NCBI RefSeq assembly: GCF_008079445.1 | Contig: NZ_VRYH01000001.1 | Span: 481,196 to 505,195 of the forward strand | Direction: 5' to 3' | DNA: 24,000 bases | From: Aidingimonas lacisalsi | GTDB lineage: Bacteria; Pseudomonadota; Gammaproteobacteria; Pseudomonadales; Halomonadaceae | Shown: positions 4,627-18,037 of the stretch, piece by piece | Position numbering within the stretch: the first letter of the stretch is position 1 | Layout of the letters: each line of letters starts with the position of its first letter | The notes under the pieces: model-generated | Seen by the model: the letters and a program-made list of their open reading frames with translations, nothing else | The model's database searches: none | Told to the model about the DNA's origin: nothing | Translations under genes and position numbers: made by a program

Positions 4627-4641
4627 TGGCATATATCATGC
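4627..4641 (+). promoter_or_regulatory. candidate sigma-54 (-24/-12) promoter of the divergent Fap-like module
   Basis: TGGCAT-ATATC-ATGC, with exact GG-N10-GC spacing (GG 4628-4629, GC 4640-4641). It has two mismatches to TGGCAC-N5-TTGC. It lies ~140 nt upstream of the ATG at 4782, in an AT-rich spacer. Confidence 0.55.
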
Positions 4642-4781: not shown

Positions 4782-5924
4782 ATGAAGAAGTATGTACTAG
4801 CGGGAACAACGATGTTGGCCTTGGTCATGGCGATTTCCACTGCCAGTGCCAACCCCTTCAACAAGCAGATCGGCACGGATGATAGTGGCGATCAATCAAA
4901 TAATCTGACATCGACAGCGGCAGCAACAGGCGGAGACAGTGGTTTTTCGCTGGGTGGTAGCGGTGGTGATGGCTCCAGTGACGCTTCCGTCAAAGCCAAG
5001 AATTATCTGGATGAGGTCGACGACGACGATAACGCTGGAACACAGACCGCGGCGGGTACAGCCACCAGTGGAACAGGGACTGGCGGTGCGGGTGGTGCCG
5101 GCGGTGCTACTGGACGCGGTGGCGATGCCTGGGCCATGAGTGAATCCTACAACACCATCACCGAAGTCATTGCCTATCAGGACCTGGAATCCCAAGTCAC
5201 CGGCTCCAGGGTATATATCACGGCAGGTGATGGAGCCATGGGGGGGGCCGGCGATGATGGTGGCGATGCGTTTGCTGCCTCTGTCGGAGTCGGTGTTGGT
5301 GGTGAAGGCGGTAAAGGTGAAGGGGGTGATGGCGGTAAGTCCTACGCCAAGGCAGGCGATGGTGACGATGGCGGTGATGGTACTGGTCTCGGTCTCGGAC
5401 TAGGCGCTGGTCAGGGTGGTGACGCTGACGCCGAGAATGATGACACCTATGCCAACAACGCAACCTTGGCTGGTCTAGCGGCTGTCGTCGAGGATGATGA
5501 CAATAATGCGACTGGCGGGGCGGCCACTGGCGGTGATGCCACGGCTTCATCAGCAGCAGCAGGCGGTACCGGTGGTGCCGGTAGTGGTACTGGCAGCGGT
5601 TCCGGTACGGGGACTGCCGGTGATGGCGGTAATGGCGGTAACGCAACAGCAGGAACTGGAGGTAGCGCTAACGGTAATGGCGGCGGCGGCGGTGGTGGCA
5701 CCGGCACCAGTGGCGATGCCATGGCGGCTGCCGGCAATGGTGGCAACGGTGGTAACGGCGGCAATGGCGGCAATGCAACGTTGGCAACCGGAACTGCCAG
5801 TATGTCAGCAGGCTCCGGAACCTTCGGGGGTATCGCCAACATGAACTTGTCCACCGGTATCTATAACTCTCAGTTGGCTGCCAGCAACGTTGCGGCACAT
5901 AGCAACGTCAACATTGGCAATTGA
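4782..5924 (+). CDS. secreted Gly/Asp-rich low-complexity protein with one C-terminal Fap-type N/Q/G repeat (putative cargo)
   Basis: An RBS (GGGAGA) precedes the ATG. The Sec signal peptide is MKKYVLAGTTMLALVMAISTASA|NP. Long G/D/A/T tracts follow (GGAGGAGGATGRGGD, GGEGGKGEGGDGGK, NGGNGGNGGNGGN). The C-terminal 36 aa, SGTFGGIANMNLSTGIYNSQLAASNVAAHSNVNIGN, align in register with the FapB/FapC repeats. Confidence 0.8.
   Translation: MKKYVLAGTTMLALVMAISTASANPFNKQIGTDDSGDQSNNLTSTAAATGGDSGFSLGGSGGDGSSDASVKAKNYLDEVDDDDNAGTQTAAGTATSGTGTGGAGGAGGATGRGGDAWAMSESYNTITEVIAYQDLESQVTGSRVYITAGDGAMGGAGDDGGDAFAASVGVGVGGEGGKGEGGDGGKSYAKAGDGDDGGDGTGLGLGLGAGQGGDADAENDDTYANNATLAGLAAVVEDDDNNATGGAATGGDATASSAAAGGTGGAGSGTGSGSGTGTAGDGGNGGNATAGTGGSANGNGGGGGGGTGTSGDAMAAAGNGGNGGNGGNGGNATLATGTASMSAGSGTFGGIANMNLSTGIYNSQLAASNVAAHSNVNIGN
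5733..5774 (+). repeat. imperfect 9-nt codon repeat encoding (GNG)n
   Basis: GGCAATGGT GGCAACGGT GGTAACGGC GGCAATGGC GGCAAT is in frame with the 4782 CDS and encodes GNGGNGGNGGNGGN. Synonymous differences interrupt perfect DNA repetition. Confidence 0.8.
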
Positions 5925-6028: not shown

Positions 6029-6412
6029 ATGAAAAGATTCGACCGTTTGTCGCTGCAGCTGATTGGGATCGTCACGCTGGTGGGTCTTGCCGTTTCGCCT
6101 ATTCTTGCAGAAGAACTCCCATCTTCAACTGCCCGAGGATTCGATACTGTCGAAAAAATTGATGGCGACATTCTTGAAACCCTGAGAGGGAAAGAAGGGT
6201 TCGTTAATCTGACAAATGTTCAAAGCATTCAAAATCTTGATGCTAGCGTGAGTCATAGCAGCTTTTATGCCGATACTATACGCAGTGGTGCAATCACCAT
6301 CGAGGCTCAGGCACTAGAAAATTTTGGTGGGATCGGGTTATTCAACCTGGTTACCGGCAATAATAATGCTGTCAATAGTGGTGTTGGAGTAAGTATCTAC
6401 ATGGCTGAGTGA
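6029..6412 (+). CDS. small secreted protein ending in one Fap-type repeat (FapB/nucleator-like position)
   Basis: AGGAG lies 10 nt upstream of the ATG at 6029. The signal peptide is MKRFDRLSLQLIGIVTLVGLAVSPILA|EE. The C-terminus is AQALENFGGIGLFNLVTGNNNAVNSGVGVSI. The ORF-track start at 5957 falls inside the upstream hairpin. Confidence 0.65.
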   Translation: MKRFDRLSLQLIGIVTLVGLAVSPILAEELPSSTARGFDTVEKIDGDILETLRGKEGFVNLTNVQSIQNLDASVSHSSFYADTIRSGAITIEAQALENFGGIGLFNLVTGNNNAVNSGVGVSIYMAE

Positions 6413-6424
6413 TGAGTAATTGAT

Positions 6425-7138
6425 ATGAAGAAACTGATTACCGGAATTATGGCGGCGACGGTGCTGACTGCATCATTTCAAATGATGAACGTTTCTTCAG
6501 CCTATGCTGGTTCTGTCAACATTGCCGGTTCCTTCGGCTCGTTTCAGGTTCCCAGCAAAAGTCTGGTTGAATTGCGTTGGGATCGTGTTGTGCCTCAGCA
6601 GTATGACTATAGTTGCGGATCCGCTGCCGTCGCGACGCTACTTACCTATCATTACGATCGCGAAACTTCCGAAGCGGAAGTCTTCGATCTCATGTTCGCT
6701 AGTGGCGATAAGGAGAAAATACAACAGCATGGATTTTCAATGCTTGATATGAAGCGCTACCTGGATGCTCAGAATCTTGATTCGGACGGTTTCCGCATCG
6801 AGCTGGACGATTTTATACGCATCGGGGTCCCTGCCATCACGTTAATCAATACCGGCGGTTACAAACATTTCGTGGTGATCAAAGGCATGGATGAAGATCG
6901 TGTTCTGGTTGGCGATCCGGCAGTAGGTACTGTCGTTGTGCCTAAGGAGCACTTCAGAAAGCTGTGGGACGGTACGGTGCTTGGAGCCAGGCGCGAAATG
7001 GAACTTGCTCAGCTTCACTTCAATCACGAAGATGATTGGCGTATCCGCCCCGATTCGCCGTTAAAGCAGGGTATGAGGCGTTCCGGTGTGGGTAGCGCCT
7101 TACTCGGTCTACCCGGTGATAACGAGATGGGCAAATAA
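6425..7138 (+). CDS. periplasmic C39-family cysteine peptidase (FapD-like paralog)
   Basis: The signal peptide ends ..SSAYA|GS. The catalytic Cys context is YDYSCGSAAVATLLTY, the His context is GGYKHFVVIKG, and the Asp context is VGDPAVG. The protein is colinear with the 13656-14372 product. Confidence 0.85.
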   Translation: MKKLITGIMAATVLTASFQMMNVSSAYAGSVNIAGSFGSFQVPSKSLVELRWDRVVPQQYDYSCGSAAVATLLTYHYDRETSEAEVFDLMFASGDKEKIQQHGFSMLDMKRYLDAQNLDSDGFRIELDDFIRIGVPAITLINTGGYKHFVVIKGMDEDRVLVGDPAVGTVVVPKEHFRKLWDGTVLGARREMELAQLHFNHEDDWRIRPDSPLKQGMRRSGVGSALLGLPGDNEMGK

Positions 7139-7161
7139 TAGCCTCATTGGGGACGATGACC

Positions 7162-7845
7162 ATGAACGTTTCGACTGGTGAATGGCAAGCCGGAGTTAGA
7201 AGGGACTCGCGAATAGTAAAGCGAAGAACGATCTGGCCGCTGGCATGGCTGTGTTTTTTCATATCTTCGACAACACCGGCGGGCTTTGTCGCTGAGATGG
7301 CAATTGACCCATTCGTGCCTGAAGTTGACGCACCCATGGCTGAGCCTCTGGCATTTTCTCAGCAGCCGGTTATCGATGCGTCCGAATTGGAGGGTATGCG
7401 TGGTGGTTTCAATATCGCGGGATTGGATGTCGATTTCGGAGCCAGATTAAGAACACAAATCGATAATATTCGCTATGAAACCGTGCTTAGCATCACTCAA
7501 GCAGGCACTAGTGTGGTATCGGAAACCTTGAATGATATGGGATTTCAAGCGAATCAGCAATTGATCCGGGTTGGTCAAGGTAGCGGGAGCTCATTGGAAA
7601 ATGTATTGCCAGCCAACGTGGCATTACCGGGATTGAATGAATTCAGTGGCGTCACTCTCAATGATCCCAAGGGTTTTTCGGCAGCACTGCATAACGTCAC
7701 TCGTGATGCTATCATGAGCTCAGTCGTGAGCAACGCATCTGACCGGGATATCCGGCAGTACATGAACCTTGATGTGAAGCTCAATAATGTCAATTCGCTG
7801 CGCGATGCCCAGCAGCGTTCAGTCATCATGAACTCATTGTTCTAG
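7162..7845 (+). CDS. FapE-like secreted protein (paralog of 14426-15214)
   Basis: GGGGA lies 8 nt before the ATG at 7162; in-frame alternatives are 7147 (TTG) and 7156. There is a long n-region signal peptide (..IWPLAWLCFFISSTTPAGFVA|E). It shares the block DASELEGMRGGF..FG with the DDELAGMRGRF..FG block of 14426-15214, and sits after a C39 peptidase gene as that gene does. Confidence 0.55.
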   Translation: MNVSTGEWQAGVRRDSRIVKRRTIWPLAWLCFFISSTTPAGFVAEMAIDPFVPEVDAPMAEPLAFSQQPVIDASELEGMRGGFNIAGLDVDFGARLRTQIDNIRYETVLSITQAGTSVVSETLNDMGFQANQQLIRVGQGSGSSLENVLPANVALPGLNEFSGVTLNDPKGFSAALHNVTRDAIMSSVVSNASDRDIRQYMNLDVKLNNVNSLRDAQQRSVIMNSLF

Positions 7846-7961: not shown

Positions 7962-9035
7962 TTAAAAGACGTTCATGCCAAACGGAATCCGTAGTGTCAA
8001 CATGGTGTCGGGTGCATCATCAGTGACTCCAAGCTCCAGTCCCAGATTGACCGATGTATCCTGTGAAAGCTGATAGGACCAGCCCAGAAGCAGTGAACCG
8101 ACATTCAGGGTGCTGGATTGAGTACTAACACTATTGCCATCATCGTCAGTGAAACGGGTCTTGGTTTTATTGATGAAATCGTTCTTGTACCCAAGTGTGA
8201 ACGACGAACGTTCGTTGATGGAATAAGCCATGCCAAAACTCACACGAACGGCGTCTCCCGGGTCAACTTCACCGACGAAGAGATCACCTACCGGTTCATC
8301 GATATCGTCCTTCATATTGTAAAGATAGCCAAAATTGGCAAAGTAGACGGCCGGGTCCGAGGGAAACAGAAGCGTCAGGCTAGGTTCGATCGAGTGAAAA
8401 CCAGAGCCCGTCGCCAATTCGCGTTCGATGCCGTCCGCATCGCGGCGGATATCGAAAGGTCCCTCGCCGGTCGTCGATTTATATCTGAGATTGCCAATGA
8501 AATATGGCCAGCCATCCTGGCCTCGATTCATTTGATAGTGGGCGGCGATCTCGATATCTCCTAGCCCGTTTCCCGTCAGGCTTCTATCTGTACTGAATCC
8601 TTGTGCATCGGGAACCGTGGCATAGAGTGTGTCGTCGCGGTAGACATAAGGTACTTTCAGCTCCAGTTCCAGCCGGTCGGTGACTCCCAAGCGACCAGTT
8701 ACCGAGGCCGTCATGGTATCTCGGTCGGCGTCTTCGGCTTCGAATACGCCGATCAAAAAGGTACTCAATATTTCGATACCGCGAAATGTGAGCCTATTGA
8801 CGCTGGCATGGGAGTATTGTATTTCCGGTTCGATGACAAGACGCCCTTTGGGAGTAAGAACACCACCGATATCGGGAATGGCCTGAATTTCGGGTTGTTC
8901 TTGCTGAATTTCGGGTGCTTGTCCTACGGGTTGCTGCTCTGCAGAATTCCGGTTATTGGCATCCTGAGCCAGCACTTGACTGGCCAGAAGAAGAAGGCTC
9001 AGCCCGGTCATGCTTGTGAGGATTTTTGAGTTCAT
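7962..9035 (-). CDS. outer-membrane beta-barrel protein, FapF-like (MetA-pathway/phenol-degradation transporter-like family) paralog
   Basis: GGGGAGA RBS before the ATG at 9035. The signal peptide is MNSKILTSMTGLSLLLLASQVLA|QD. Blocks shared with the 15501-16613 product: L.IEP.I.Y, G.T[DE]RLE.EL..P..YR, GLGDI, DPA..FAN.GY.YN, NER.S, G[VL]TDDA.D. The C-terminal Phe (..GMNVF) is typical of an OMP beta-signal. Confidence 0.75.
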   Translation of the reverse strand: MNSKILTSMTGLSLLLLASQVLAQDANNRNSAEQQPVGQAPEIQQEQPEIQAIPDIGGVLTPKGRLVIEPEIQYSHASVNRLTFRGIEILSTFLIGVFEAEDADRDTMTASVTGRLGVTDRLELELKVPYVYRDDTLYATVPDAQGFSTDRSLTGNGLGDIEIAAHYQMNRGQDGWPYFIGNLRYKSTTGEGPFDIRRDADGIERELATGSGFHSIEPSLTLLFPSDPAVYFANFGYLYNMKDDIDEPVGDLFVGEVDPGDAVRVSFGMAYSINERSSFTLGYKNDFINKTKTRFTDDDGNSVSTQSSTLNVGSLLLGWSYQLSQDTSVNLGLELGVTDDAPDTMLTLRIPFGMNVF

Positions 9036-9122
9036 GTCGTTGTCTCCCCTGAGACCCCTTGTTGAATGTTGAATGATGCATGACATTATTACGTTGTCGG
9101 CCTGGCGATGGTCCTCCTATGC

Positions 9123-10550
9123 TCAATGCTTTCGGGAGCTCGAGTCCTTCAGCGGGGATAAAGGAAATACCGTCACACCGTTGAGAGTTTTTCGGTGCCA
9201 CTCGATACGATGCTTCTCCAATAATCGGTAAAGAGTGATTCTGGAAATCCCTAGTTCGCGAGCCGTAGGTACGATCTTGTAGTTATGCCGTTGCAATGCT
9301 GCCTCTACAACGGCAATTTCAGCATTATCGCGAGCGGCTTCCAGAGTGGCGGCAATGGGTTTTCCCTCAATCAATCGGCCTTCAAGGCCTAGATCCTCTG
9401 GCTCGATCAGGTGGTGTTCACACATCACCATTGCGCGCCGGATACGATTGATGAGTTCACGGACATTACCCGGCCAATCGTGCTGGGCAATCGCCTCGAG
9501 GGCGTTCTCGCTGAACCCGTGAACGCCAGCAGCTTTCTCTGGGCTAAACTCGCGAAAGAATCCTTGAGCCATGGTTTCCAGGTCTTCCCGCCGTTCGCGC
9601 AGTGGTGGAATATCCAACTGGATGACGTTGAGGCGATGATAGAGATCTTCTCGAAACCGGTGAGCCTTGATCGCGGTGAGCAGGTCAACATGAGTGGCGG
9701 AAATGATGCGTGTATCGACCATGACTTCCTGGACGCTACCAAGGCGCCGTATCCGATGGTCTTCCAGAAAGCGAAGCAGGTTGACTTGCAAGTCGCGTGG
9801 GAGATCACCGATCTCATCCAGAAACAGCGTGCCACCATCGGCACTTTCAAGTCGTCCGATACGGCGACAGTGCGCATCAGTGAATGCGCCTTTCTCATGT
9901 CCAAAAAGCTCAGCTTGAATGAGCTGGGCCGGTAAAGCGCCACAATTGATGGTGATGAAAGGTTTGTCGGCTCTGGCTGACATGGCGTGGATGGTACGAG
10001 CGACCAGTTCTTTGCCCGTACCGGATTCACCGATGATCATCACTGGTGCATGAATGATTGCCACTTTATGGATACTTTGCAGAACTCGTCTCATGCTGGG
10101 AGCAGAGCCGTAAAAGGGGGGGGCGGCATGCTGAAGGTAGTGAAGTACTCGCGTAGATGATGCTGATCTGGCAGTACGTTTCATCGATGCTGCATGGTTA
10201 AGAAGAACACAAAGGGCCTTTCCATTGCCAGGAAGTATATGGTAAGCATAAAAAAGTGTTTTTATTATCAATCTATTATTTTCATTTCTTAGATAATCAT
10301 TGTCTATTAAGGCAATCCATTCTATGCAGCTAGCATCTATCAATTCCTCAATGTCTCTGTATCCTGATTCACACAAAGATCCCATATCGATGATACCAAT
10401 ATCGAAATGATTGGCTATCAATCGGTCCGATGGCATAGTGATACGAGGATAGTGACTGACCTCAAAGAGCTTCAGTGCCGTATCGACAAGGATGAGACGG
10501 TTGGCCTCAATACGATTCCCAACATAAAGTAATCTCTTCAATGCATGCAT
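9123..10550 (-). CDS. sigma-54-dependent enhancer-binding protein (VpsR-like architecture), variant GAFTDA loop
   Basis: Walker [15 protein letters not shown] (9873-9890), Walker [10 protein letters not shown], and a C-terminal Fis-type HTH (ELGISRITLYRLLEKH). The N-terminal ~120 aa are receiver-like and lack the N-terminal acidic pair. Clear paralog of 16673-18037 (shared KRLL[YF]VG, EW[IV]AL[IV]D, LFYAYH.LP). Confidence 0.85.
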   Translation of the reverse strand: MHALKRLLYVGNRIEANRLILVDTALKLFEVSHYPRITMPSDRLIANHFDIGIIDMGSLCESGYRDIEELIDASCIEWIALIDNDYLRNENNRLIIKTLFYAYHILPGNGKALCVLLNHAASMKRTARSASSTRVLHYLQHAAPPFYGSAPSMRRVLQSIHKVAIIHAPVMIIGESGTGKELVARTIHAMSARADKPFITINCGALPAQLIQAELFGHEKGAFTDAHCRRIGRLESADGGTLFLDEIGDLPRDLQVNLLRFLEDHRIRRLGSVQEVMVDTRIISATHVDLLTAIKAHRFREDLYHRLNVIQLDIPPLRERREDLETMAQGFFREFSPEKAAGVHGFSENALEAIAQHDWPGNVRELINRIRRAMVMCEHHLIEPEDLGLEGRLIEGKPIAATLEAARDNAEIAVVEAALQRHNYKIVPTARELGISRITLYRLLEKHRIEWHRKTLNGVTVFPLSPLKDSSSRKH

Positions 10551-11291: not shown

Positions 11292-11307
11292 TGGCATGGC
11301 AATTGCT
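11292..11307 (+). promoter_or_regulatory. sigma-54 (-24/-12) promoter of the fap operon
   Basis: TGGCAT-GGCAA-TTGCT has one mismatch to TGGCAC-N5-TTGCW, with exact GG-N10-GC spacing (GG 11293-11294, GC 11305-11306). It lies ~35 nt upstream of the RBS-supported ATG at 11341. Confidence 0.7.
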
Positions 11308-11340: not shown

Positions 11341-11844
11341 ATGAACGGCTTTACACACTCCACATCGGTTTTACCGCTCAGGCCAATCGCAACGCGCTGC
11401 CAGTATATCGCGACTGCATTGATCCTGGCGTGGGGACCGGCTGTCAGCTGGGCAGGGGAGTTGCAGGGAGATAACGACACCATAGCCGTTGCCTACACCA
11501 CGGTCTCGCATCAGTCATCGTCATATAGCAATAACAACCACCATGGTTTGGCCGATCATGTCGCTTTCGAAAGTGGCAATGACTTCGGGGGTAACGGCGG
11601 AGAAAGCTTGCCCGGCACATTCAGGTCACTGGAGATGAACACAACCATTGATAGTGACACCTTGAGCCAGGTGCGCGGCCGTTACACCCCGTCTTCCGAG
11701 CTCGAAAAAGGCACGGCTGACGGCGTCATTCTTTGGGATGAAGGCCATGTCGGCAAAGGTGGTGGTTCGAGCAAGGGATCCAATCACTCCATGGGTCAGG
11801 GAAATATCCAGAACAACTCCATTACGACCCAGAGTAAAAGGTGA
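11341..11844 (+). CDS. small secreted, largely low-complexity protein in the FapA position
   Basis: GAGGA lies 8 nt before the ATG at 11341; the ORF-track ATG at 11296 sits inside the sigma-54 promoter. The signal peptide is ..YIATALILAWGPAVSWA|GE. The mature part is S/N/G-rich. The assignment rests on gene order only. Its stop overlaps the next start (GTGA). Confidence 0.45.
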   Translation: MNGFTHSTSVLPLRPIATRCQYIATALILAWGPAVSWAGELQGDNDTIAVAYTTVSHQSSSYSNNNHHGLADHVAFESGNDFGGNGGESLPGTFRSLEMNTTIDSDTLSQVRGRYTPSSELEKGTADGVILWDEGHVGKGGGSSKGSNHSMGQGNIQNNSITTQSKR

Positions 11845-12527
11845 GCGTCATGGCTGGAAACACAATCTTTGGAAACGAAATATCAAACAAAACTGGCCGT
11901 TTGCGGAGAGTGTTACTGGCAATGTCACCGCTGGTTTTCATGACGTTCGTAATGAATAACGCATCAGGAGATGACGGGGTCTTCAGGCATCTACCGCAGG
12001 CGAATAGCAGTGTCATCAGTGGTGAAGCGTTGAGTGGAGTACGGGGTGTAGTTACCACCAATAGTGCAGCGGGAACCAACAATCTTCAGAGTAATTCGGG
12101 AGCGATTTCCATCGGTGATACCGCTTCCGTGAGTAACCATATCATTCAGCAATCCACACTGGACAAAGGCTCCGTTCCTGGCCGAGACAACGTCTCGATC
12201 GAGGGTCGAGCATTCAGCCATGCCAAAGGCTGGATTTCGACCAATCAGGCGGCGGGGCAAGCGAATGTGCAGGGCAATGCAGTCAGCATGGCTCTGGGCA
12301 TCAGGGGCAGTGCACTGAGCGAGAGCAGTATGGGTCAGGTGCTGTCCGATCAGCAGGGACTGACGGCCGATCTGGTTAGTTCCGATTCCTCGAAGCGTAA
12401 GGTCACGATCGACAAGACAGCCTTCTCGGGGGCGGCAGGAATTATCCAGACGAACCAGTCAGCCGGAAACGGCAATACCACCAGTAACAGCTTCAGTCTC
12501 CGTGTGGGGCCTGGGGGCGGTGAGTAG
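11841..12527 (+). CDS. fapB: FapB-like amyloid subunit/nucleator with three Fap-type repeats
   Basis: Signal peptide ..RRVLLAMSPLVFMTFVMNNASG|DD. It has three ~34-aa imperfect repeats (see the repeat feature) and ends GPGGGE, like the FapC-like protein (GTGGGSE). Start is GTG 11841 (coupled) or ATG 11850 (AGGTGA RBS). Confidence 0.7.
   Translation: MSVMAGNTIFGNEISNKTGRLRRVLLAMSPLVFMTFVMNNASGDDGVFRHLPQANSSVISGEALSGVRGVVTTNSAAGTNNLQSNSGAISIGDTASVSNHIIQQSTLDKGSVPGRDNVSIEGRAFSHAKGWISTNQAAGQANVQGNAVSMALGIRGSALSESSMGQVLSDQQGLTADLVSSDSSKRKVTIDKTAFSGAAGIIQTNQSAGNGNTTSNSFSLRVGPGGGE
12015..12509 (+). repeat. three imperfect Fap-type protein repeats in the FapB-like CDS
   Basis: R1 12015-12116 ISGEALSGVRGVVTTNSAAGTNNLQSNSGAISIG. 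R2 12198-12299 IEGRAFSHAKGWISTNQAAGQANVQGNAVSMALG. R3 12408-12509 IDKTAFSGAAGIIQTNQSAGNGNTTSNSFSLRVG. Confidence 0.8.
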
Positions 12528-12576
12528 TCTGCCGGAATAAACAACGTTGAACCAAGGTTCATTCAGGAGAAAGATC

Positions 12577-13578
12577 ATGAAAACATTGACGAAAACTCCG
12601 CTGGCACTGGCTATCGCTACCTTGATGATGGCGCCCTATGCGATGGCGGATGGGTATAACGGTGGTTTCGATACCGATAGTGAAATCGACTCTGAGTTCA
12701 GTAATGAAGTCGAAGTCGAAATCGAGCATGAAGCGGAAACCGATAAGAAGATCAAGGTATGGGGCGGCGCCCTGATACTGGATCCCAACTACGCGGGTGC
12801 CACGGTCGATAGCAAGCAATTGTCGGAAGACAATTTCGTGCTCAACGACCTGGTGGAAAACGATGCGCGAGTAGGCGGTGATGCCGGTCGAAATGCCAGC
12901 GGCAATATCGGCATCAACAGTGCGGCCGGCGACAACAACCAACAGGCCAATGATGCGGCCTTGGCGGCATCCGACGCGAATACGGTATTCGCCCAGTCGG
13001 CCGCATTCTCGGTACAGTCCTCTGACGACAACACGGTGGTCAACAAGGGTACCGATAACGATGCCGGCGCAGGTGGCAATGCGCTGCGCGGCGCCACAGG
13101 CAATATCGGTCTCAACAGTGCCGCCGGGGTCGGTAACGCCCAGCAGAACAGCTTGTCGGCGTCCGTCAACACCAGCAATGGATCAGCCGATGCCACATCG
13201 GCCGGCGTGCAATCGACCAGCGATAACACCAGCTTCAATGGACCCGGGGAAATCGAGACCACGGAAACCTCTCAATATAATGGCGTAGCAGCCATTGCGG
13301 GAGCGTCTGCCGAAGCTGGTGCAGGTGCAAGCGTTGGTTATGGACTGAAAGTCGGTGCCGGTGCAGAAGCCAGCGCTGGGGCGCTTGCGGCGGCTGTCTC
13401 CGGTAGTGAGACCGTCACCACCACGGTCTCTCGGATGCAGACCAACGATGCCAAGCTGAACGGTAACGCGCTCCGCGATGCTTCGGGCAATATCGGGGTC
13501 AACGTGGCTGCCGGCAACAACAACATGCAGCGTAACTCGCTCTCCATTGCCGCCGGAACGGGTGGTGGTTCTGAGTGA
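12577..13578 (+). CDS. fapC: FapC-like major functional-amyloid subunit
   Basis: AGGAGA RBS 6 nt before the ATG at 12577. The signal peptide is MKTLTKTPLALAIATLMMAPYAMA|DG. It has three N/Q/G/A-rich repeats separated by linkers of unequal length, and is the third gene of a fapABCDEF-ordered cluster. Confidence 0.75.
   Translation: MKTLTKTPLALAIATLMMAPYAMADGYNGGFDTDSEIDSEFSNEVEVEIEHEAETDKKIKVWGGALILDPNYAGATVDSKQLSEDNFVLNDLVENDARVGGDAGRNASGNIGINSAAGDNNQQANDAALAASDANTVFAQSAAFSVQSSDDNTVVNKGTDNDAGAGGNALRGATGNIGLNSAAGVGNAQQNSLSASVNTSNGSADATSAGVQSTSDNTSFNGPGEIETTETSQYNGVAAIAGASAEAGAGASVGYGLKVGAGAEASAGALAAAVSGSETVTTTVSRMQTNDAKLNGNALRDASGNIGVNVAAGNNNMQRNSLSIAAGTGGGSE
12874..13554 (+). repeat. three imperfect Fap-type protein repeats in the FapC-like CDS
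   Basis: R1 12874-12972 GGDAGRNASGNIGINSAAGDNNQQANDAALAAS. R2 13072-13167 GGNALRGATGNIGLNSAAGVGNAQQNSLSASV. R3 13456-13554 LNGNALRDASGNIGVNVAAGNNNMQRNSLSIAA. Confidence 0.85.
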
Positions 13579-13655: not shown

Positions 13656-14372
13656 ATGTTTCCTTCGATAATGACTCGCATGTTGTCTGTTCTGGTTGGC
13701 GCTGGCTGCCTGCTGGCAGCGGGAATATCCGATGTCCAGGCGGCCAACGTGCGTCTGGGCAATGTGGTATCGGGTACCGTGATCAACAAGGATGTGCAGT
13801 CGATGCGCGAGCGGAAGTTCGACACCCTGGTGGAACAGGAAACGGATTTCTCCTGTGGCGCCGCCTCGCTGGCGACTCTGCTTCGTTACGCCTATGGCAA
13901 GCCGGAAGTCACTGAAAATGACGTGCTTGAGGGAATGCTTGAAATCGCCGATCCCGAGGTGGTGATGGAGCGCGGCTTTTCCCTGCTCGACCTCAAGAAT
14001 TATGTCGATAGCCTGGGATATCGTGGCCGCGGTTACGAAGTCGACACCGAGACGCTGGACGAGGTGGCGATTCCCGTTATCGTGCTGCTCGATATCGATG
14101 GCTACAAACATTTCGTGGTGATGAAGAAAGCCAGTGATGACCGGGTCTATGTCGGCGATCCGGCGTTGGGCAATCGGGTCATGGAGCGCGATGCCTTCCT
14201 CGAAGCCTGGAACAACATCATCTTTGCCGTGGTAGGCGAAGGGTTCGATACGCAGACACCTCTACTCGATCCGGATCAACCGCTGACGGCGCGACGGCTG
14301 ACCGATGTGTTTGCCCCGGTTCCCGAACAGGATCTTCTCGATTTCGGATTTCGCCATGCCGACTTCTTCTGA
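13656..14372 (+). CDS. fapD: periplasmic C39-family cysteine peptidase FapD
   Basis: Signal peptide ..LLAAGISDVQA|AN. The Cys context is TDFSCGAASLATLLRY, the His context is DGYKHFVVMKK, and the Asp context is VGDPALG. There are no ABC-transporter domains. Fourth gene of the cluster. Confidence 0.85.
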   Translation: MFPSIMTRMLSVLVGAGCLLAAGISDVQAANVRLGNVVSGTVINKDVQSMRERKFDTLVEQETDFSCGAASLATLLRYAYGKPEVTENDVLEGMLEIADPEVVMERGFSLLDLKNYVDSLGYRGRGYEVDTETLDEVAIPVIVLLDIDGYKHFVVMKKASDDRVYVGDPALGNRVMERDAFLEAWNNIIFAVVGEGFDTQTPLLDPDQPLTARRLTDVFAPVPEQDLLDFGFRHADFF

Positions 14373-14425: not shown

Positions 14426-15214
14426 ATGATCAGGCACTGGGTGGATAAGCGTTGGTACGGTGCACTGGGCGTTGTCGTTGTATTAGGGGGCGTTGGACAA
14501 CCGACAGACGGACGGGCCGCGACGACCGATGTATCGGCGTTGGCTGATTCCCGTCAACTCAGCGATGACGAATTGGCCGGTATGCGCGGCCGTTTCATCG
14601 ATGGCAAAAGTGTCATGTTCTTCGGCGTCAGTATGGAGAGTGAATTCCGCACCGCGGGAGGTGATAGTCTGAAAGCGGGCGCCAATCTCCATGCCGATCT
14701 GATCAAAGGCAAAGCCAGTTTCAAACCACATATTACAGCCACGTCTATCGATAGCGATAAGGTGACAGCGAAAGGAAATAATAATGCGAATTTGAGCTAT
14801 AACGACCTCGGCAGTGGCAATGCGCGTGGCGTCGTGCAAACCATACAGGCGGCCGGTGATGGCAACGCTGCTGCCAACGAATTCGAACTCGATATCCAGA
14901 CATTTGCGAATGCGGCGCGTGGCGGACGAGTTTCCGGCAATGGTGAAACGTCTCTGAATACCGGTACAGCCAATCTGAGAGTTCGACAGAATGGACGCGG
15001 TATGGAAGTCGGTATCGACGTGCCAGGCCAGGGCCGTATCAAGCAGCAGCTCCGATCGGGGCAGGGGTTGCATCAGTCGGTGCAACTCAACAGCGATTTG
15101 CAGCAGGTGCGAAACGTGACACGGTTACAAGTCGGGGTGAAGCAGGCACTGGGTAACGCGTCAGGCTCCCAGCTCAAGCGTGCACTGGATTCGGCACGCG
15201 GCCTACGACGTTGA
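14426..15214 (+). CDS. fapE: FapE-like secreted minor amyloid-associated protein
   Basis: AAGGGGG lies 5 nt before the ATG at 14426. The signal peptide is ..WYGALGVVVVLGGVGQPTDGRA|A. It contains one Fap-type repeat (14807-14896, LGSGNARGVVQTIQAAGDGNAAANEFELDI). Fifth gene of the cluster. Confidence 0.6.
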   Translation: MIRHWVDKRWYGALGVVVVLGGVGQPTDGRAATTDVSALADSRQLSDDELAGMRGRFIDGKSVMFFGVSMESEFRTAGGDSLKAGANLHADLIKGKASFKPHITATSIDSDKVTAKGNNNANLSYNDLGSGNARGVVQTIQAAGDGNAAANEFELDIQTFANAARGGRVSGNGETSLNTGTANLRVRQNGRGMEVGIDVPGQGRIKQQLRSGQGLHQSVQLNSDLQQVRNVTRLQVGVKQALGNASGSQLKRALDSARGLRR

Positions 15215-15500: not shown

Positions 15501-16613
15501 ATGCGAATGACCAAGGTTGCCGATCCTCAACTGAGTCTCAAGCCGTATCTCACCGCTGTCACATTGTGTGTGGGTAGTGCGTGGGCCACATCAGCCTGGG
15601 CTCAAGGGGATGTATCGCCGGGGGGCGATGGAGACGGGGAGGTTGTCAGGGAGGCCGGCCCCACGCAAAGCGTCCAGAATGTGCTCCGTGAGGAACATGC
15701 GCTGTTCTCGGATCGACTGACGATCGAACCCGGGATCAGTTATGCCTATTCGGATCGTAGCCAGTTGGCTCTGAGTGGTTTCCTGGCGCTGGATGCCATT
15801 TTCCTGGGGGAAATCGATGTCGATACCGTCTCGAGCCATATCACCACGTTCGATCTCAACTTTCGTTACGGGGTAACCGAGCGCCTGGAATTCGAACTCA
15901 ATTTCCCGTTCCTGTATCGCAGCAGTACCTATGAGAGCACCGGAGGGGGTGGTGCGGGTGAAGATGACCCCAATGTCGAGGATTCCGTGAGCGAGGCCGG
16001 ATTGGGGGATATCAGTGCCTCACTTAATTACCGGTTGTTGAATGAAACCGCGCAACGCCCCGATCTGGTCTGGAATTTTGGTGTCCGTGCGCCGACAGGA
16101 AACGATCCCTTCGGTATCCCGACACGTCGAGTGGAAGGCAGTGAAGGTAATATAGAGATTCCGACTGAATTGCCGACGGGTAATGGCGTCTGGGCCGTTT
16201 CCACGGGCTTCTCGGTGCTCAAGACGGTCGATCCTGCCATTCTCTTTGCCAACGCTGGCTACACGTATAATTTCGAAGAGAGTTTTGGCGATATCGATGC
16301 CGCGGAAGGCAATCAACCGGGTGATGTCGAGCTGGGTGATTCCTTCAACCTGGGATTTGGCACAGCGTTTGCCCTGAATGAGCGGTTGAGCTTGTCGATG
16401 TCCTACGCGCACCAACACAGCTTCAAATCCGAGACGACCCAGAACGGGGTTACCGAAGAGATCGTGGGGAGTGATGCCAATGTAGGCACCATGAATTTCG
16501 GCGCCACCTATGCGCTGAGCGACGATACCTCACTGGTCACCAACGTGGCGGTTGGCTTGACCGACGATGCCTCGGACTTGACGGTCTCGTTCCGGATGCC
16601 CTTCCAGTTCTAG
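15501..16613 (+). CDS. fapF: FapF-like outer-membrane amyloid-secretion beta-barrel
   Basis: GGGGAG RBS. The signal peptide is ..LCVGSAWATSAWA|QG. An N-terminal soluble segment is followed by barrel blocks (GVTERLEFELNFPFLYR, GLGDISA, DPAILFANAGYTYN, ALNERLSLS, GLTDDASD). The C-terminus is RMPFQF. Sixth gene of the cluster. Confidence 0.8.
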   Translation: MRMTKVADPQLSLKPYLTAVTLCVGSAWATSAWAQGDVSPGGDGDGEVVREAGPTQSVQNVLREEHALFSDRLTIEPGISYAYSDRSQLALSGFLALDAIFLGEIDVDTVSSHITTFDLNFRYGVTERLEFELNFPFLYRSSTYESTGGGGAGEDDPNVEDSVSEAGLGDISASLNYRLLNETAQRPDLVWNFGVRAPTGNDPFGIPTRRVEGSEGNIEIPTELPTGNGVWAVSTGFSVLKTVDPAILFANAGYTYNFEESFGDIDAAEGNQPGDVELGDSFNLGFGTAFALNERLSLSMSYAHQHSFKSETTQNGVTEEIVGSDANVGTMNFGATYALSDDTSLVTNVAVGLTDDASDLTVSFRMPFQF

Positions 16614-16643: not shown

Positions 16644-16676
16644 TTGAGCCGCTCATGCGTAAGCAGAGCGGCTCAA
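16644..16676. terminator. hairpin between convergent fapF and the EBP gene
   Basis: TTGAGCCGCTC (16644-16654), 11-nt loop, GAGCGGCTCAA (16666-16676) form a perfect 11-bp stem. It overlaps the EBP stop codon (16673-16675). The flanking T/A tracts are weak. Confidence 0.45.
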
Positions 16677-18037
16677 TGTTTGATGTCAGGCGTTTCATTC
16701 CGGGTGATCTGGTGTTTATCGATCAAGCGGTACAGTGTGACTCGCGACACACCGAGTTCCTTGGCAGCGTTCTGTACCTTGAACTTGTTTCGTGCCAAGG
16801 CAGCGATCAAAGCCTCGCGTTCTGCGGCATCACGAGCTTGTTCCAGTGTCAGGATTTCCCGGCTGTTCAAGCGCCGTTCGAGTCCCATGTCGGCAGGACG
16901 GATCAGACGCCGTTCACACATCACCATGGCTCGACGCACTCGGTTGATGAGTTCGCGGATATTACCTGGCCAGTCGTACTGCCGCATGAGTGCCAGGGTT
17001 TCCTGGCTGAAGCCACGCAGTTGTACCGGTTTCTCATTGGCGAACTTATCGAAGAAAAAACGTGCGAGGACTTCGATATCTTCCTGGCGCTCGCGTAACG
17101 GTGGCACATTGATCTGAAGAACATTGAGCCGATGGTATAGATCTTCACGAAAACGCCCTTCACGCACCGCAGCTTCCAGGTCGACATGGGTCGCGGCCAA
17201 TATACGAACATCGACATTGATCTCCTTCAGGCCGCCGAGTCGCTGAATCTGGTGATCCTGAAGAAAGCGTAAGAGATTGACTTGCATATCCAAAGGTAGA
17301 TCGCCAATCTCATCGAGGAATAGCGTACCGCCGGAGGCTGACTCGATTCGTCCGATCTTGCGTTGTGTCGCACCGGTGAAGGCACCTTTTTCGTGGCCGA
17401 AGAGTTCCGCTTGGATCAAGTTCGAAGGCAGTGCGCCGCAATTGACGGCCACGAACGGCCCTTGGGCGCGGGCTGATCGCTCGTGAATGGCATGGGCGGC
17501 CAACTCCTTGCCGGTTCCGGACTCGCCGCTGATGAACACTGGGGCATCGACAGCCGCCACTCGGCGAATCATCTCGAAGAGCTTGTGCATCTCTGGCGTC
17601 GTGCCAACCATTTCGTAGTCTTCGGAACCGAGTTGGCTGTCTTTGCCGAGAATGGGGTTCAGCCTGGCCATGGCGAGCGCGTGGTTGAGCAGACAATCGA
17701 CCTGGCCTACGTCCATGGGCAAGGTATGATAGGCATAGAAAAGCTGGCTTAATGCGCGACAGCTATAGTGATCACTCAATGCCATGTCATCGACCAATGC
17801 GACCCACTCCATGGGGTGGGACATCACCAACTTCTCGGCGTCCTTATGATGATGTTGTTGGCAGAAGTCGACGTACATCAATCCGACATCACAAGGATTT
17901 GAGTGGATCAGTTCGTTGGCTTCGAAGGTGTCGTCGGCACATTGAATTGACCATCCACGCTGGACCATATCATTGATGATCGGTGGGGTATGATGGTGTG
18001 GAGCACCTACGAACAACAGTCGTTTTGCAACTTCCAT
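16673..18037 (-). CDS. sigma-54-dependent enhancer-binding protein (VpsR-like architecture), canonical GAFTGA
   Basis: Walker [15 protein letters not shown] (17369-17386), Walker [10 protein letters not shown], and a Fis-type HTH ([16 protein letters not shown]). The N-terminal receiver-like domain lacks the acidic pair ([10 protein letters not shown]). Paralog of 9123-10550. Confidence 0.9.

Follow-up and report, generated by a model that had tools for sequence, protein, structure and literature searches.

Among the closest described counterparts of the system considered here are the Fap amyloid export system of Pseudomonas and the double-glycine (GG) leaders recognized by the C39 peptidases of peptidase-containing ABC transporters (PCAT) and ABC-transporter maturation and secretion (AMS) proteins, such as LahT, ComA, PCAT1, and CvaB. 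Both bear on a stretch of 24,000 nucleotides from Aidingimonas lacisalsi (NCBI RefSeq assembly GCF_008079445.1, contig NZ_VRYH01000001.1, positions 481,196 to 505,195; hereafter the window), in which the FapE homologue and three further putatively Sec-exported proteins contain a short element resembling a GG leader. This element is very probably the recognition motif, and probably also the cleavage site, of the periplasmic C39 peptidase that is co-encoded with it.

Fap Export and Double-Glycine Leaders

In Pseudomonas, FapD is a periplasmic protein whose catalytic cysteine is required for the secretion of FapC (Rouse 2017, PMC5557850). The same study noted that the Fap proteins lack canonical C39 sequences, pointed out GG and GA dipeptides in FapE and FapF, and suspected that FapD processes the N-terminus of FapE, with no site or leader motif defined (PMC5557850). 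The processing of FapE by FapD, proposed in the first-pass annotation of the window, goes back to that work, and the accompanying remark that the substrate of FapD is not firmly established agrees with reviews of 2018 and December 2025, in which the substrate is either undetermined or “thought to” be FapE or FapF (PMC6173800, PMC12822426). No paper defining the present motif was found in the literature searched.

The recognition of a GG leader has been analyzed for LahT150 by mutagenesis and a 2.0 Å co-crystal structure, which revealed that positions -2, -4, -7, and -12 matter for cleavage, that positions -3, -5, and -8 are tolerant, and that Thr is accepted at -4 (PMC6363468). GG peptidases require small residues at the scissile site because the cleft narrows there (PMC6363468). 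The element described below is compared with this scheme throughout.

Four Copies of a Leader-Like Element

The window contains two gene clusters. Cluster 2 lies on the plus strand and follows the Pseudomonas fapABCDEF gene order, with the same B-C-D-E-F order in related loci; in addition, and unlike the situation in Pseudomonas, a second, non-Fap cluster (cluster 1) has the same element. Two proteins of each cluster carry it, as follows (each motif spans positions -12 to -1):

6158-6193, plus strand: motif of the small cluster-1 protein, IDGDILETLRGK, then EGF (translation and family alignments)
7372-7407, plus strand: motif of the cluster-1 FapE-like protein, IDASELEGMRGG, then F (translation; R-G-G invariant in the orthologue alignment)
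11647-11682, plus strand: motif of the FapA-position protein, IDSDTLSQVRGR, then Y (translation and conservation)
14558-14593, plus strand: motif of FapE, LSDDELAGMRGR, then F (translation)

All four peptide strings named in the first-pass annotation were recovered by translation, including LSDDELAGMRGR at 14558-14593 in FapE, LSQVRGR at 11662-11682, and LETLRGK at 6173-6193; only the cluster-1 FapE-like string had been given a start 3 nt too late, since its leading I occupies 7372-7374, while DASELEGMRGG and the following F are indeed found at 7375-7410. The four strings lie 3′ of a Sec-type segment comprised of a basic n-region and a hydrophobic h-region, as that annotation had stated; these signal peptides were judged by direct reading of the translations, not by a dedicated predictor. 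In FapE, the motif residues are L45 (-12), L50 (-7), M53 (-4), G55 (-2), R56 (-1), and F57 (+1), and the peptide spanning the motif reads SRQLSDDELAGMRGRFIDGKS.

The mapping of these strings onto the GG-leader consensus was right, and it can be extended, because a hydrophobic residue at -12, which had been overlooked in the two smaller proteins, is present in all four (I, I, I, and L). By contrast, the proposed pattern L-x-x-[MVL]-R-G-[GRK] has a conserved skeleton but is too narrow, because -3 is A, T, S, or H in many small proteins. In the aligned sequences, the four proteins share the skeleton phi(-12)-[S/D/P]-D(-10)-x-[E/x]-[L/M](-7)-x-x-phi(-4)-x-G(-2)-[G/R/K](-1), where phi denotes a hydrophobic residue. 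The explanation that is favored, with a confidence somewhat better than even for the explanation as a whole, is that the four motifs are copies of one conserved N-terminal pro-segment element, located about 20-30 residues past the Sec signal peptide, which is read and cut by the cognate standalone C39 peptidase.

Among 20 window proteins, L..[MVL]RG[GRK] is matched by only these four, and composition-preserving shuffles match it in 0.1-1% of trials per protein, although the pattern was set post hoc, after the data had been seen. The same pattern scan of the window proteins detected no leader-like motif in FapC or in the Gly-rich protein of cluster 1.

Conservation Across Families and Loci

Genome loci were gathered by a scan that used FapD, and not the motif, as its anchor and that returned 79 loci from Halomonadaceae, Marinobacterium, Methylophaga, Methylotenera, Polaromonas, Amphritea, Bryobacterales, and others. 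Where a locus extends far enough past FapD, the next gene downstream is in essentially every case a FapE homologue, and all of these FapD-adjacent homologues have the motif at the aligned position. A profile search of 1.84 billion representatives additionally yielded 488 FapE relatives, the best 150 of which (≤50% mutual identity) contain the motif. The residues observed in 202 distinct FapE sequences, taken from 78 FapD-anchored genome loci and the 150 representatives at 50% identity, are as follows:

Position -12: V/L/I in 196 of 202
Position -10: D in 187 of 202
Position -8: E in 121 of 202
Position -7: L in 194 and M in 8 (L/M in 202 of 202)
Position -4: M/L/I/V in 184 of 202, with Q/T in 16 of the other 18
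Position -3: R in 195 of 202
Position -2: G in 202 of 202
Position -1: R/K in 202 of 202
Position +1: F/Y in 190 of 202

The -1 residue of FapE falls at a median precursor position of 56, approximately 31 residues past the end of the h-region, and the interval between the signal peptide and the end of the motif is approximately 20-30 amino acids. Pseudomonas-type FapE carries the same motif (e.g., ELSDHELAQLRGR followed by YV), and in this type only about 20 amino acids extend from the signal peptide to RGR (...FTLHA, then APAFNPVELSDHELAQLRGR, then YVLPGH).

The FapA-position protein could be compared in 52 loci, where L(-7) is present in 51, I/V/M/L(-4) in 49, G(-2) in 50, L/I/V/M(-12) in 49, and R/K(-1) in 38 of the 52; in this family, the motif is located at a fixed distance of 10-14 residues ahead of a VILWDE block. 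The alignment of homologues that had been suggested as a check on the first-pass annotation thus bore out that the motif is conserved across fap loci. In a separate observation, the profile of the FapA-position protein retrieves FapE at E ~1e-25 (loci L001-L079); the two families therefore appear, from this profile similarity, to be homologous beyond the 12-residue motif, and the FapA-type protein may be derived from FapE, or the reverse.

Cluster 1 adjoins cluster 2 in six other Halomonadaceae genomes, in which the FapE-like protein retains E[LM]xx[LM]RGG followed by F and the small protein retains ELxx[LI]xG[RK] followed by EGF. Conservation of the motif in both cluster-1 proteins extends from Halomonadaceae to Sphingomonadales and metagenomes. 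The pattern common to all families stops at -1, and the prime side is characteristic of each family: F/Y-V in FapE, [EA]-D in the small proteins, and F-x-L-P-N in the FapE-like proteins. Among orthologous FapE-like proteins, moreover, -1 is either G or K (...RGG before F.LPN versus ...TGK before F.LPN), and this exchange implies that the position is tolerant. Because the motif is conserved family-wide, and in view of the shuffles, a chance origin was rejected. The motif is far more widespread than the window by itself could show, and the first-pass interpretation of it is borne out in part.

Likeness to Double-Glycine Leaders

In the Fap alignments, the invariant or near-invariant motif positions are exactly -2, -4, -7, and -12, i.e., the determinants of leader recognition by LahT150, while -3 differs between families and -8 is a preference only. 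The motifs have the hydrophobic residues at -4, -7, and -12 that are expected of GG leaders, together with other features shared with them, namely G(-2), frequently S(-11) and E(-8), a short helix as far as the prediction for FapE goes, and a pro-segment of approximately 20-30 amino acids. The peptidases, for their part, share the papain-like C39 fold and the Q/C/H/D site with those of PCAT and AMS transporters.

There are also differences. A small pair at -2/-1 (GG, GA, or GS) is found only in the cluster-1 FapE-like protein (RGG); G, A, or S is expected at -1 of a GG leader, whereas the motif ends in G-[R/K] throughout FapE and in the majority of the FapA-type and small proteins. GG leaders are located at the extreme N-terminus without a Sec signal, whereas the element is internal in all four proteins, with a Sec-type signal peptide ahead of it. 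In PCAT and AMS proteins, the peptidase is a cytoplasmic domain of an ABC exporter and the cargo consists of small peptides; here, by contrast, it is a standalone protein that is predicted to be exported by Sec to the periplasm, the candidate substrates are accessory proteins of 100-230 amino acids, and export across the outer membrane would proceed through a FapF-type barrel.

From its N-terminus, the FapE precursor has a segment resembling a Sec signal, then about 25 amino acids of pro-segment, and then a beta-rich core. An AlphaFold2 (AF2) model built from a 130-sequence alignment (mean predicted local distance difference test score, pLDDT, 79.5) places a helix at D47-R54, corresponding to -10 to -3, followed by a coil at G55-R56, a lower-confidence connector, and the core from residue 63. 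The pLDDT is 84 for residues 41-50 and 64 for residues 51-60, and the predicted helix is that of the free protein, with FapE modeled alone. The core itself is modeled as all-beta with 12 strands (pLDDT >90 over most of it), and Foldseek found nothing significant for the model in the PDB (best E=0.05).

In a different explanation, the motif would correspond to the opening half of a repeat of the Fap type and would serve as an amyloid-interaction element, so that FapA-like chaperones and FapE dock on or cap the beta-strands of FapB and FapC independently of the peptidase. This idea draws on a resemblance: repeat 1 of the window FapB, ISGEALSGVRGV, has phi(-12)/L(-7)/V(-4)/G(-2), repeats 2 and 3 have I..F..A.G, and the spacing phi(-12)..[LF](-7)..[VA](-4).G(-2) occurs in all three window repeats and, across 79 loci, in the first repeat. 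There is also a weak match of the FapE profile to FapB (E 1e-4 to 1e-6), and in the literature FapA has been described as chaperoning FapC, and FapE as associated with fibrils. Nevertheless, this explanation is considered unlikely. Each protein has a single copy, always near the mature N-terminus; the copy is predicted by AF2 to be helical, not beta; FapC lacks it; and, as described below, it occupies the same N-terminal place where the cargo has no Fap repeats (the GA-leader peptides of an Acinetobacter plasmid, FilA, Sphingomonadales, and metagenomes).

The Partner Peptidases and Evidence from Pseudomonas

The first-pass description of the partner enzymes as standalone periplasmic C39 peptidases is supported by their sequences, which have signal peptides and intact catalytic residues. 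PF03412 (C39) matches the genes at 13656-14372 (E=9e-20) and 6425-7138 (E=1.6e-22), both over the gathering score. Both products are approximately 237 amino acids long and have an N-terminal signal peptide, no transmembrane or ATPase domains, and no fusion to an ABC transporter. Q61, C67, H152, and D168 are invariant in both peptidase alignments, and the Q/C/H/D set is retained in 96 of the 97 C39 open reading frames (ORFs) across all loci. The structure of LahT150 (6MPZ) is the only PDB sequence match for FapD; the AF2 model of FapD (pLDDT ~90 over residues 70-190) superposes on the peptidase domains of PCAT1, ComA, and LahT with template-modeling scores (TMt) of 0.72-0.78 and E ~1e-7 or better, and the C39-like domain (CLD) of HlyB (3ZUA) is also among its structural matches. 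FapD-type peptidases have, in addition, a conserved tail of about 45 residues past the C39 domain (...PLLDPDQPLTARRLTDVFAPVPEQDLLDFGFRHADFF; residues ~195-238, 14238-14372), which AF2 models with low confidence and which may be a partner-binding segment; the tail of the cluster-1 peptidase is different.

FapF, the other substrate suggested by Rouse et al. on account of a GG/GA dipeptide in its linker, was considered and set aside, because the clade shows no conservation of such a dipeptide: in 38 of 42 FapF linkers, GG, GA, and GS are all absent from the 30 residues before the barrel, which weakens this alternative. The N-terminal region of FapF is short in the clade (15501-16613 and loci L001-L079) and includes a highly conserved pre-barrel segment free of GG, GA, and GS, EVVREAxPSQSVxNVLREEHALFSDRLTIEP; a long coiled coil is not obvious by inspection, unlike in the description of Pseudomonas FapF.

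Published mass spectrometry (MS) of Pseudomonas UK4 detected no peptides from the first ~70 residues of FapE, the first being at residue 72, with robust coverage from residue 97 (PMC5557850). This result is consistent with loss of the FapE leader, although the only informative missing peptide is the leader itself. It cannot place the cut, because trypsin also cuts after RGR and because Pseudomonas-type FapE has few tryptic sites between approximately residues 47 and 96.

Another explanation is that the motif is a docking site that is not cleaved. The leader groove of FapD would then accommodate it in the way that the non-catalytic, HlyB-type CLDs of type I secretion systems, which have the same fold, accommodate their substrates; the accessory proteins would be held unfolded or delivered to FapF, and the catalysis of FapD would be used on another bond or protein. 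Unfolded substrates are bound by CLDs but left uncut (PMC6363468), the model of FapD can be superposed on one of these domains (3ZUA), R or K at -1 is a poor fit to the S1 site of GG peptidases, and the residues past the motif are conserved. However, CLDs lack the catalytic Cys that the present peptidases retain, and the universal retention of Q/C/H/D, together with the requirement of the Cys for secretion, means that some substrate of FapD must exist. The motif proteins are the only consistently co-encoded candidates, given the FapF linkers described above, the cluster-1 FapE-like proteins have a canonical RGG, and the N-terminus of FapE is missing from the MS data. Docking without cleavage is thus accorded only a small probability.

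Occurrence Beyond Fap

Distant standalone C39 genes were sought in PLSDB, and metagenome contigs were also surveyed; the element accompanies standalone C39 genes in distant loci with unrelated cargo. In Polymorphobacter and Croceicoccus, which have the five-gene architecture of cluster 1, the small proteins contain VSDAELGEVAGK followed by TD and VSEDALQATAGR followed by EG, and the FapE-like proteins contain ITDYELATMRGG and LSEEVLARQRGG, each followed by IRLP and located only 5-10 residues past the signal peptide. In Sphingomonadales and metagenome clusters of this kind, the major protein is an Asn/Ser-rich repeat protein, and the major Gly/Asn/Ser-rich subunits lack the element. A Cupriavidus locus with a standalone C39 gene contains VATEKLDDVRGG. 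A plasmid of Acinetobacter sp. SAAs470 (L087 5331-5795, 6221-6625, and 6911-7531) encodes two paralogous small proteins beside a signal-peptide-bearing standalone C39 peptidase; they have a Sec signal peptide, a pro-region of ~45 amino acids ending in a canonical GG-type (GA) leader, LSRQEMKDTQGA, and a Gly-rich hydrophobic tail. One such peptide weakly matches TIGR03949 (class IIb bacteriocin leader), and by their sequences these proteins look like bacteriocin-like peptides that would be matured in the periplasm.

In 80 metagenome loci anchored on the cluster-1-type peptidase, a relaxed expression of the skeleton was applied together with reversed and shuffled controls. The motif was found in 35 of the 64 ORFs directly downstream of the peptidase (reversed, 1; shuffles, mean 5.7 and maximum 13) and in 29 of the 66 directly upstream (reversed, 5; shuffles, mean 4.6). 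These figures are undercounts because of wrong-frame ORF picks and the choice of ORFs in high-GC contigs.

Two described systems are related to these loci. The Fil pilus locus of Acinetobacter (FilA-F) includes the C39 protein FilB and the FapF-like FilC, to which the peptidase and the outer-membrane protein of cluster 1 gave profile scores; the remaining Fil genes have no relation to cluster 1. FilA of A. baumannii, whose N-terminus belongs to DUF6160, contains MDDAALSAATGQ followed by DG past its signal peptide, with M(-12), D(-10), L(-7), and G(-2), but with Ala at -4 and Gln at -1; a role of the motif in FilA is undescribed in the literature. In the nap island of Neisseria, the standalone C39 peptidase NapP and the FapF homologue NapF have been proposed, as a model only, to process and export the GG-motif peptides NapA-C (PMC11798529). 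This system likewise combines a standalone C39 peptidase, a FapF-type channel, and GG-motif cargo; on the other hand, the Nap peptides are small, cationic, and microcin-like and have a true GG, the system lacks amyloid components, and cleavage is predicted there as well. A Neisseria match in PLSDB (L083) proved not to be the nap island, and the comparison therefore rests on the published account.

A FapF-like gene is found alongside the peptidase in all complete loci examined, and gene co-occurrence alone therefore cannot separate the two partners. This leaves room for an explanation in which the motif is an outer-membrane targeting signal read by the FapF-family channel and not by the peptidase. 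Since the main secreted subunits, FapC and the Gly/Asn/Ser-rich proteins, lack the motif, whereas the FapA-type protein, which is reportedly periplasmic, has it, and since the conserved positions are the determinants of the peptidase, this explanation is regarded as very improbable.

Proposed Mechanism and Points Against It

The proposed model, drawn from these comparisons, has four steps. The precursor would be exported by Sec and its signal peptide removed. The exposed element would then fold into a short amphipathic helix from -10 to -3, as modeled for FapE, and, by analogy with the LahT150-leader structure, its standalone periplasmic C39 partner, either FapD or the enzyme of cluster 1, would receive the side chains at -4, -7, and -12 in a hydrophobic groove and G(-2) in the narrow active-site cleft. 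Finally, the chain would be cut at or beside the G-x dipeptide, the scissile bond being either after -1 or after G(-2), and the mature form of FapE would start at the conserved aromatic residue. Processing of the accessory proteins may be the catalytic step known to be required for Fap secretion via FapF, while FapC and the Gly-rich cluster-1 protein, which have no motif, would not be processed. The scheme would represent a periplasmic, Sec-dependent variant of the GG-leader/C39 system whose relaxed P1 position would allow G, R, or K. It refines the earlier FapD/FapE hypothesis and broadens its scope to include FapA-type proteins and a sister system that had not been described.

Several points weigh against this model. 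To our knowledge, no C39 peptidase with R or K at P1 has been reported, and yet R or K is universal at -1 of FapE, where a small residue is expected, in conflict with the narrow S1/S2 cleft. The leader segments of the window matched no curated GG-leader profile in NCBIfam or Pfam at E≤10. The residues right past the FapE motif are highly conserved and lead into the fold (F/Y-V-D..FFGV), and the FapB repeats share the phi..[LF]..phi.G spacing, so that the element could be repeat-derived with a structural role. The MS gap at residues 41-96 in UK4 is probably also due to sparse tryptic sites and does not locate the cut. Pseudomonas FapA appears to belong to a different family from the FapA-position protein, which has the motif and the VILWDE block; in UK4 it has no motif and was seen intact (published MS tables), and processing of FapA is therefore not a general feature of Fap systems. 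Cleavage at the motif is so far predicted only, both here and in the literature. The conflict at -1 is softened, however, by the G/K exchange in the FapE-like orthologues and by the fact that clan CA proteases such as papain and cathepsins readily take Arg at P1.

Gene Clusters of the Window

The genes were identified by NCBIfam and Pfam profile matches. FapB-F homologues gave NCBIfam matches of E=1e-27 to 8e-85, although all Fap scores of the window are under the NCBIfam equivalog cut-offs (e.g., 283.6 versus 330 for FapD and 101 versus 250 for FapE). The FapA-position protein has no NCBIfam or Pfam match and is named by its operon position alone; homology with Pseudomonas concerns FapB, FapC, FapD, FapE, and FapF. 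The FapE homologue and the cluster-1 peptidase are each 100% identical to a protein of A. lacisalsi. The genes of the two clusters are:

4782-5924, plus strand: cluster-1 Gly/Asp/Asn-rich secreted protein with signal peptide, the presumed major subunit
6029-6412, plus strand: small cluster-1 protein, with signal peptide MKRFDRLSLQLIGIVTLVGLAVSPILA and then a pro-segment of ~28 amino acids ending in the motif
6425-7138, plus strand: cluster-1 standalone C39 peptidase (FapD/FilB-like) with signal peptide
7147-7845, plus strand: cluster-1 FapE-like protein
7962-9086, minus strand: cluster-1 FapF/FilC-like outer-membrane protein
11341-11844, plus strand: FapA-position protein; the ORF opens at 11296 and the likely start is ATG 11341 (the L001 orthologue starts at MNG)
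11841-12527, plus strand: FapB homologue, whose first repeat begins ISGEALSGVRGV (NCBIfam match)
12547-13578, plus strand: FapC homologue, the major amyloid subunit (NCBIfam match)
13656-14372, plus strand: FapD, standalone C39 cysteine peptidase with signal peptide and Q61/C67/H152/D168 (NCBIfam and Pfam)
14426-15214, plus strand: FapE homologue of 262 amino acids from ATG 14426, the ORF opening at GTG 14378 (NCBIfam FapE, E=6e-29)
15501-16613, plus strand: FapF outer-membrane channel homologue

Each cluster is flanked by a gene resembling those of sigma-54 enhancer-binding proteins (9123-10550 and 16673-18037, both on the minus strand). A sigma-54-type -24/-12 promoter-like element, TGGCATGGCAATTGC, at 11292-11306 overlaps the first ATG (11296) of the FapA-position ORF, and for this reason the real start is probably ATG 11341. 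A second -24/-12-like element, TGGCATATATCATGC, is located at 4627-4641, approximately 140 nt upstream of the first gene of cluster 1. Window-wide, the sigma-54-type pattern is not enriched (35 matches versus 27 expected from shuffles).

Cluster 1 represents a distinct, recurrent five-gene system comprised of a Gly/Asn/Ser-rich secreted protein, a small leader-bearing protein, a standalone C39 peptidase, a FapE-like protein, and a FapF/FilC-like barrel. Loci of this type occur in Halomonadaceae, Sphingomonadales, and many metagenome contigs (L001, L017, L021, L022, L024, L026, L081, L084, and many of L088-L167), and no description of the system was found in the literature searched. By eye, ALENFGGIGLFNLVTGNNNAVNSG, at the C-terminus of the cluster-1 small protein, looks similar to one Fap repeat, ALSGVRGVVTTNSAAGTNNLQSNSG, and the protein may be a single-repeat relative of FapB. 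The Gly/Asp/Ala-rich, low-complexity gene at 4782-5924 also yields long ORFs in other frames and on the opposite strand (e.g., 5218-5646, 5447-5854, and 5494-5844), which are considered spurious and not genes.

Implications for Periplasmic C39 Systems

The substrate and cleavage site of FapD have been an open question since 2013-2017, even though its catalytic Cys is essential for the secretion of biofilm amyloid in Pseudomonas. A conserved and precisely located candidate site turns this question into a direct experiment, and the site is also a target for anti-biofilm inhibitors.

It is also tempting to speculate on a wider picture, which is offered as a tentative one. A widespread two-step route of export may exist, in which proteins cross the inner membrane by Sec and an internal GG-like leader, phi-x-D-x-x-L-x-x-phi-x-G-[G/R/K], is then read and removed by a standalone periplasmic C39 peptidase acting with a FapF-family barrel. 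Such a route could be the periplasmic counterpart of PCAT transporters, with a relaxed P1 taking Arg or Lys, and could serve Fap amyloids, the fibre-like system of cluster 1, Fil pili, and Nap-type and bacteriocin-like peptides. Removal of the leader from FapE, the FapA-type protein, and the small cluster-1 protein might then license secretion by opening the channel to the major subunit, which has no leader of its own.

The alignments suggest that C39 enzymes can tolerate Arg or Lys at P1, which, if true, would widen the known specificity of this peptidase family. They further suggest that the same leader logic operates in a broad and largely uncharacterized class of systems, those in which a FapF-type barrel and a periplasmic C39 peptidase occur together.

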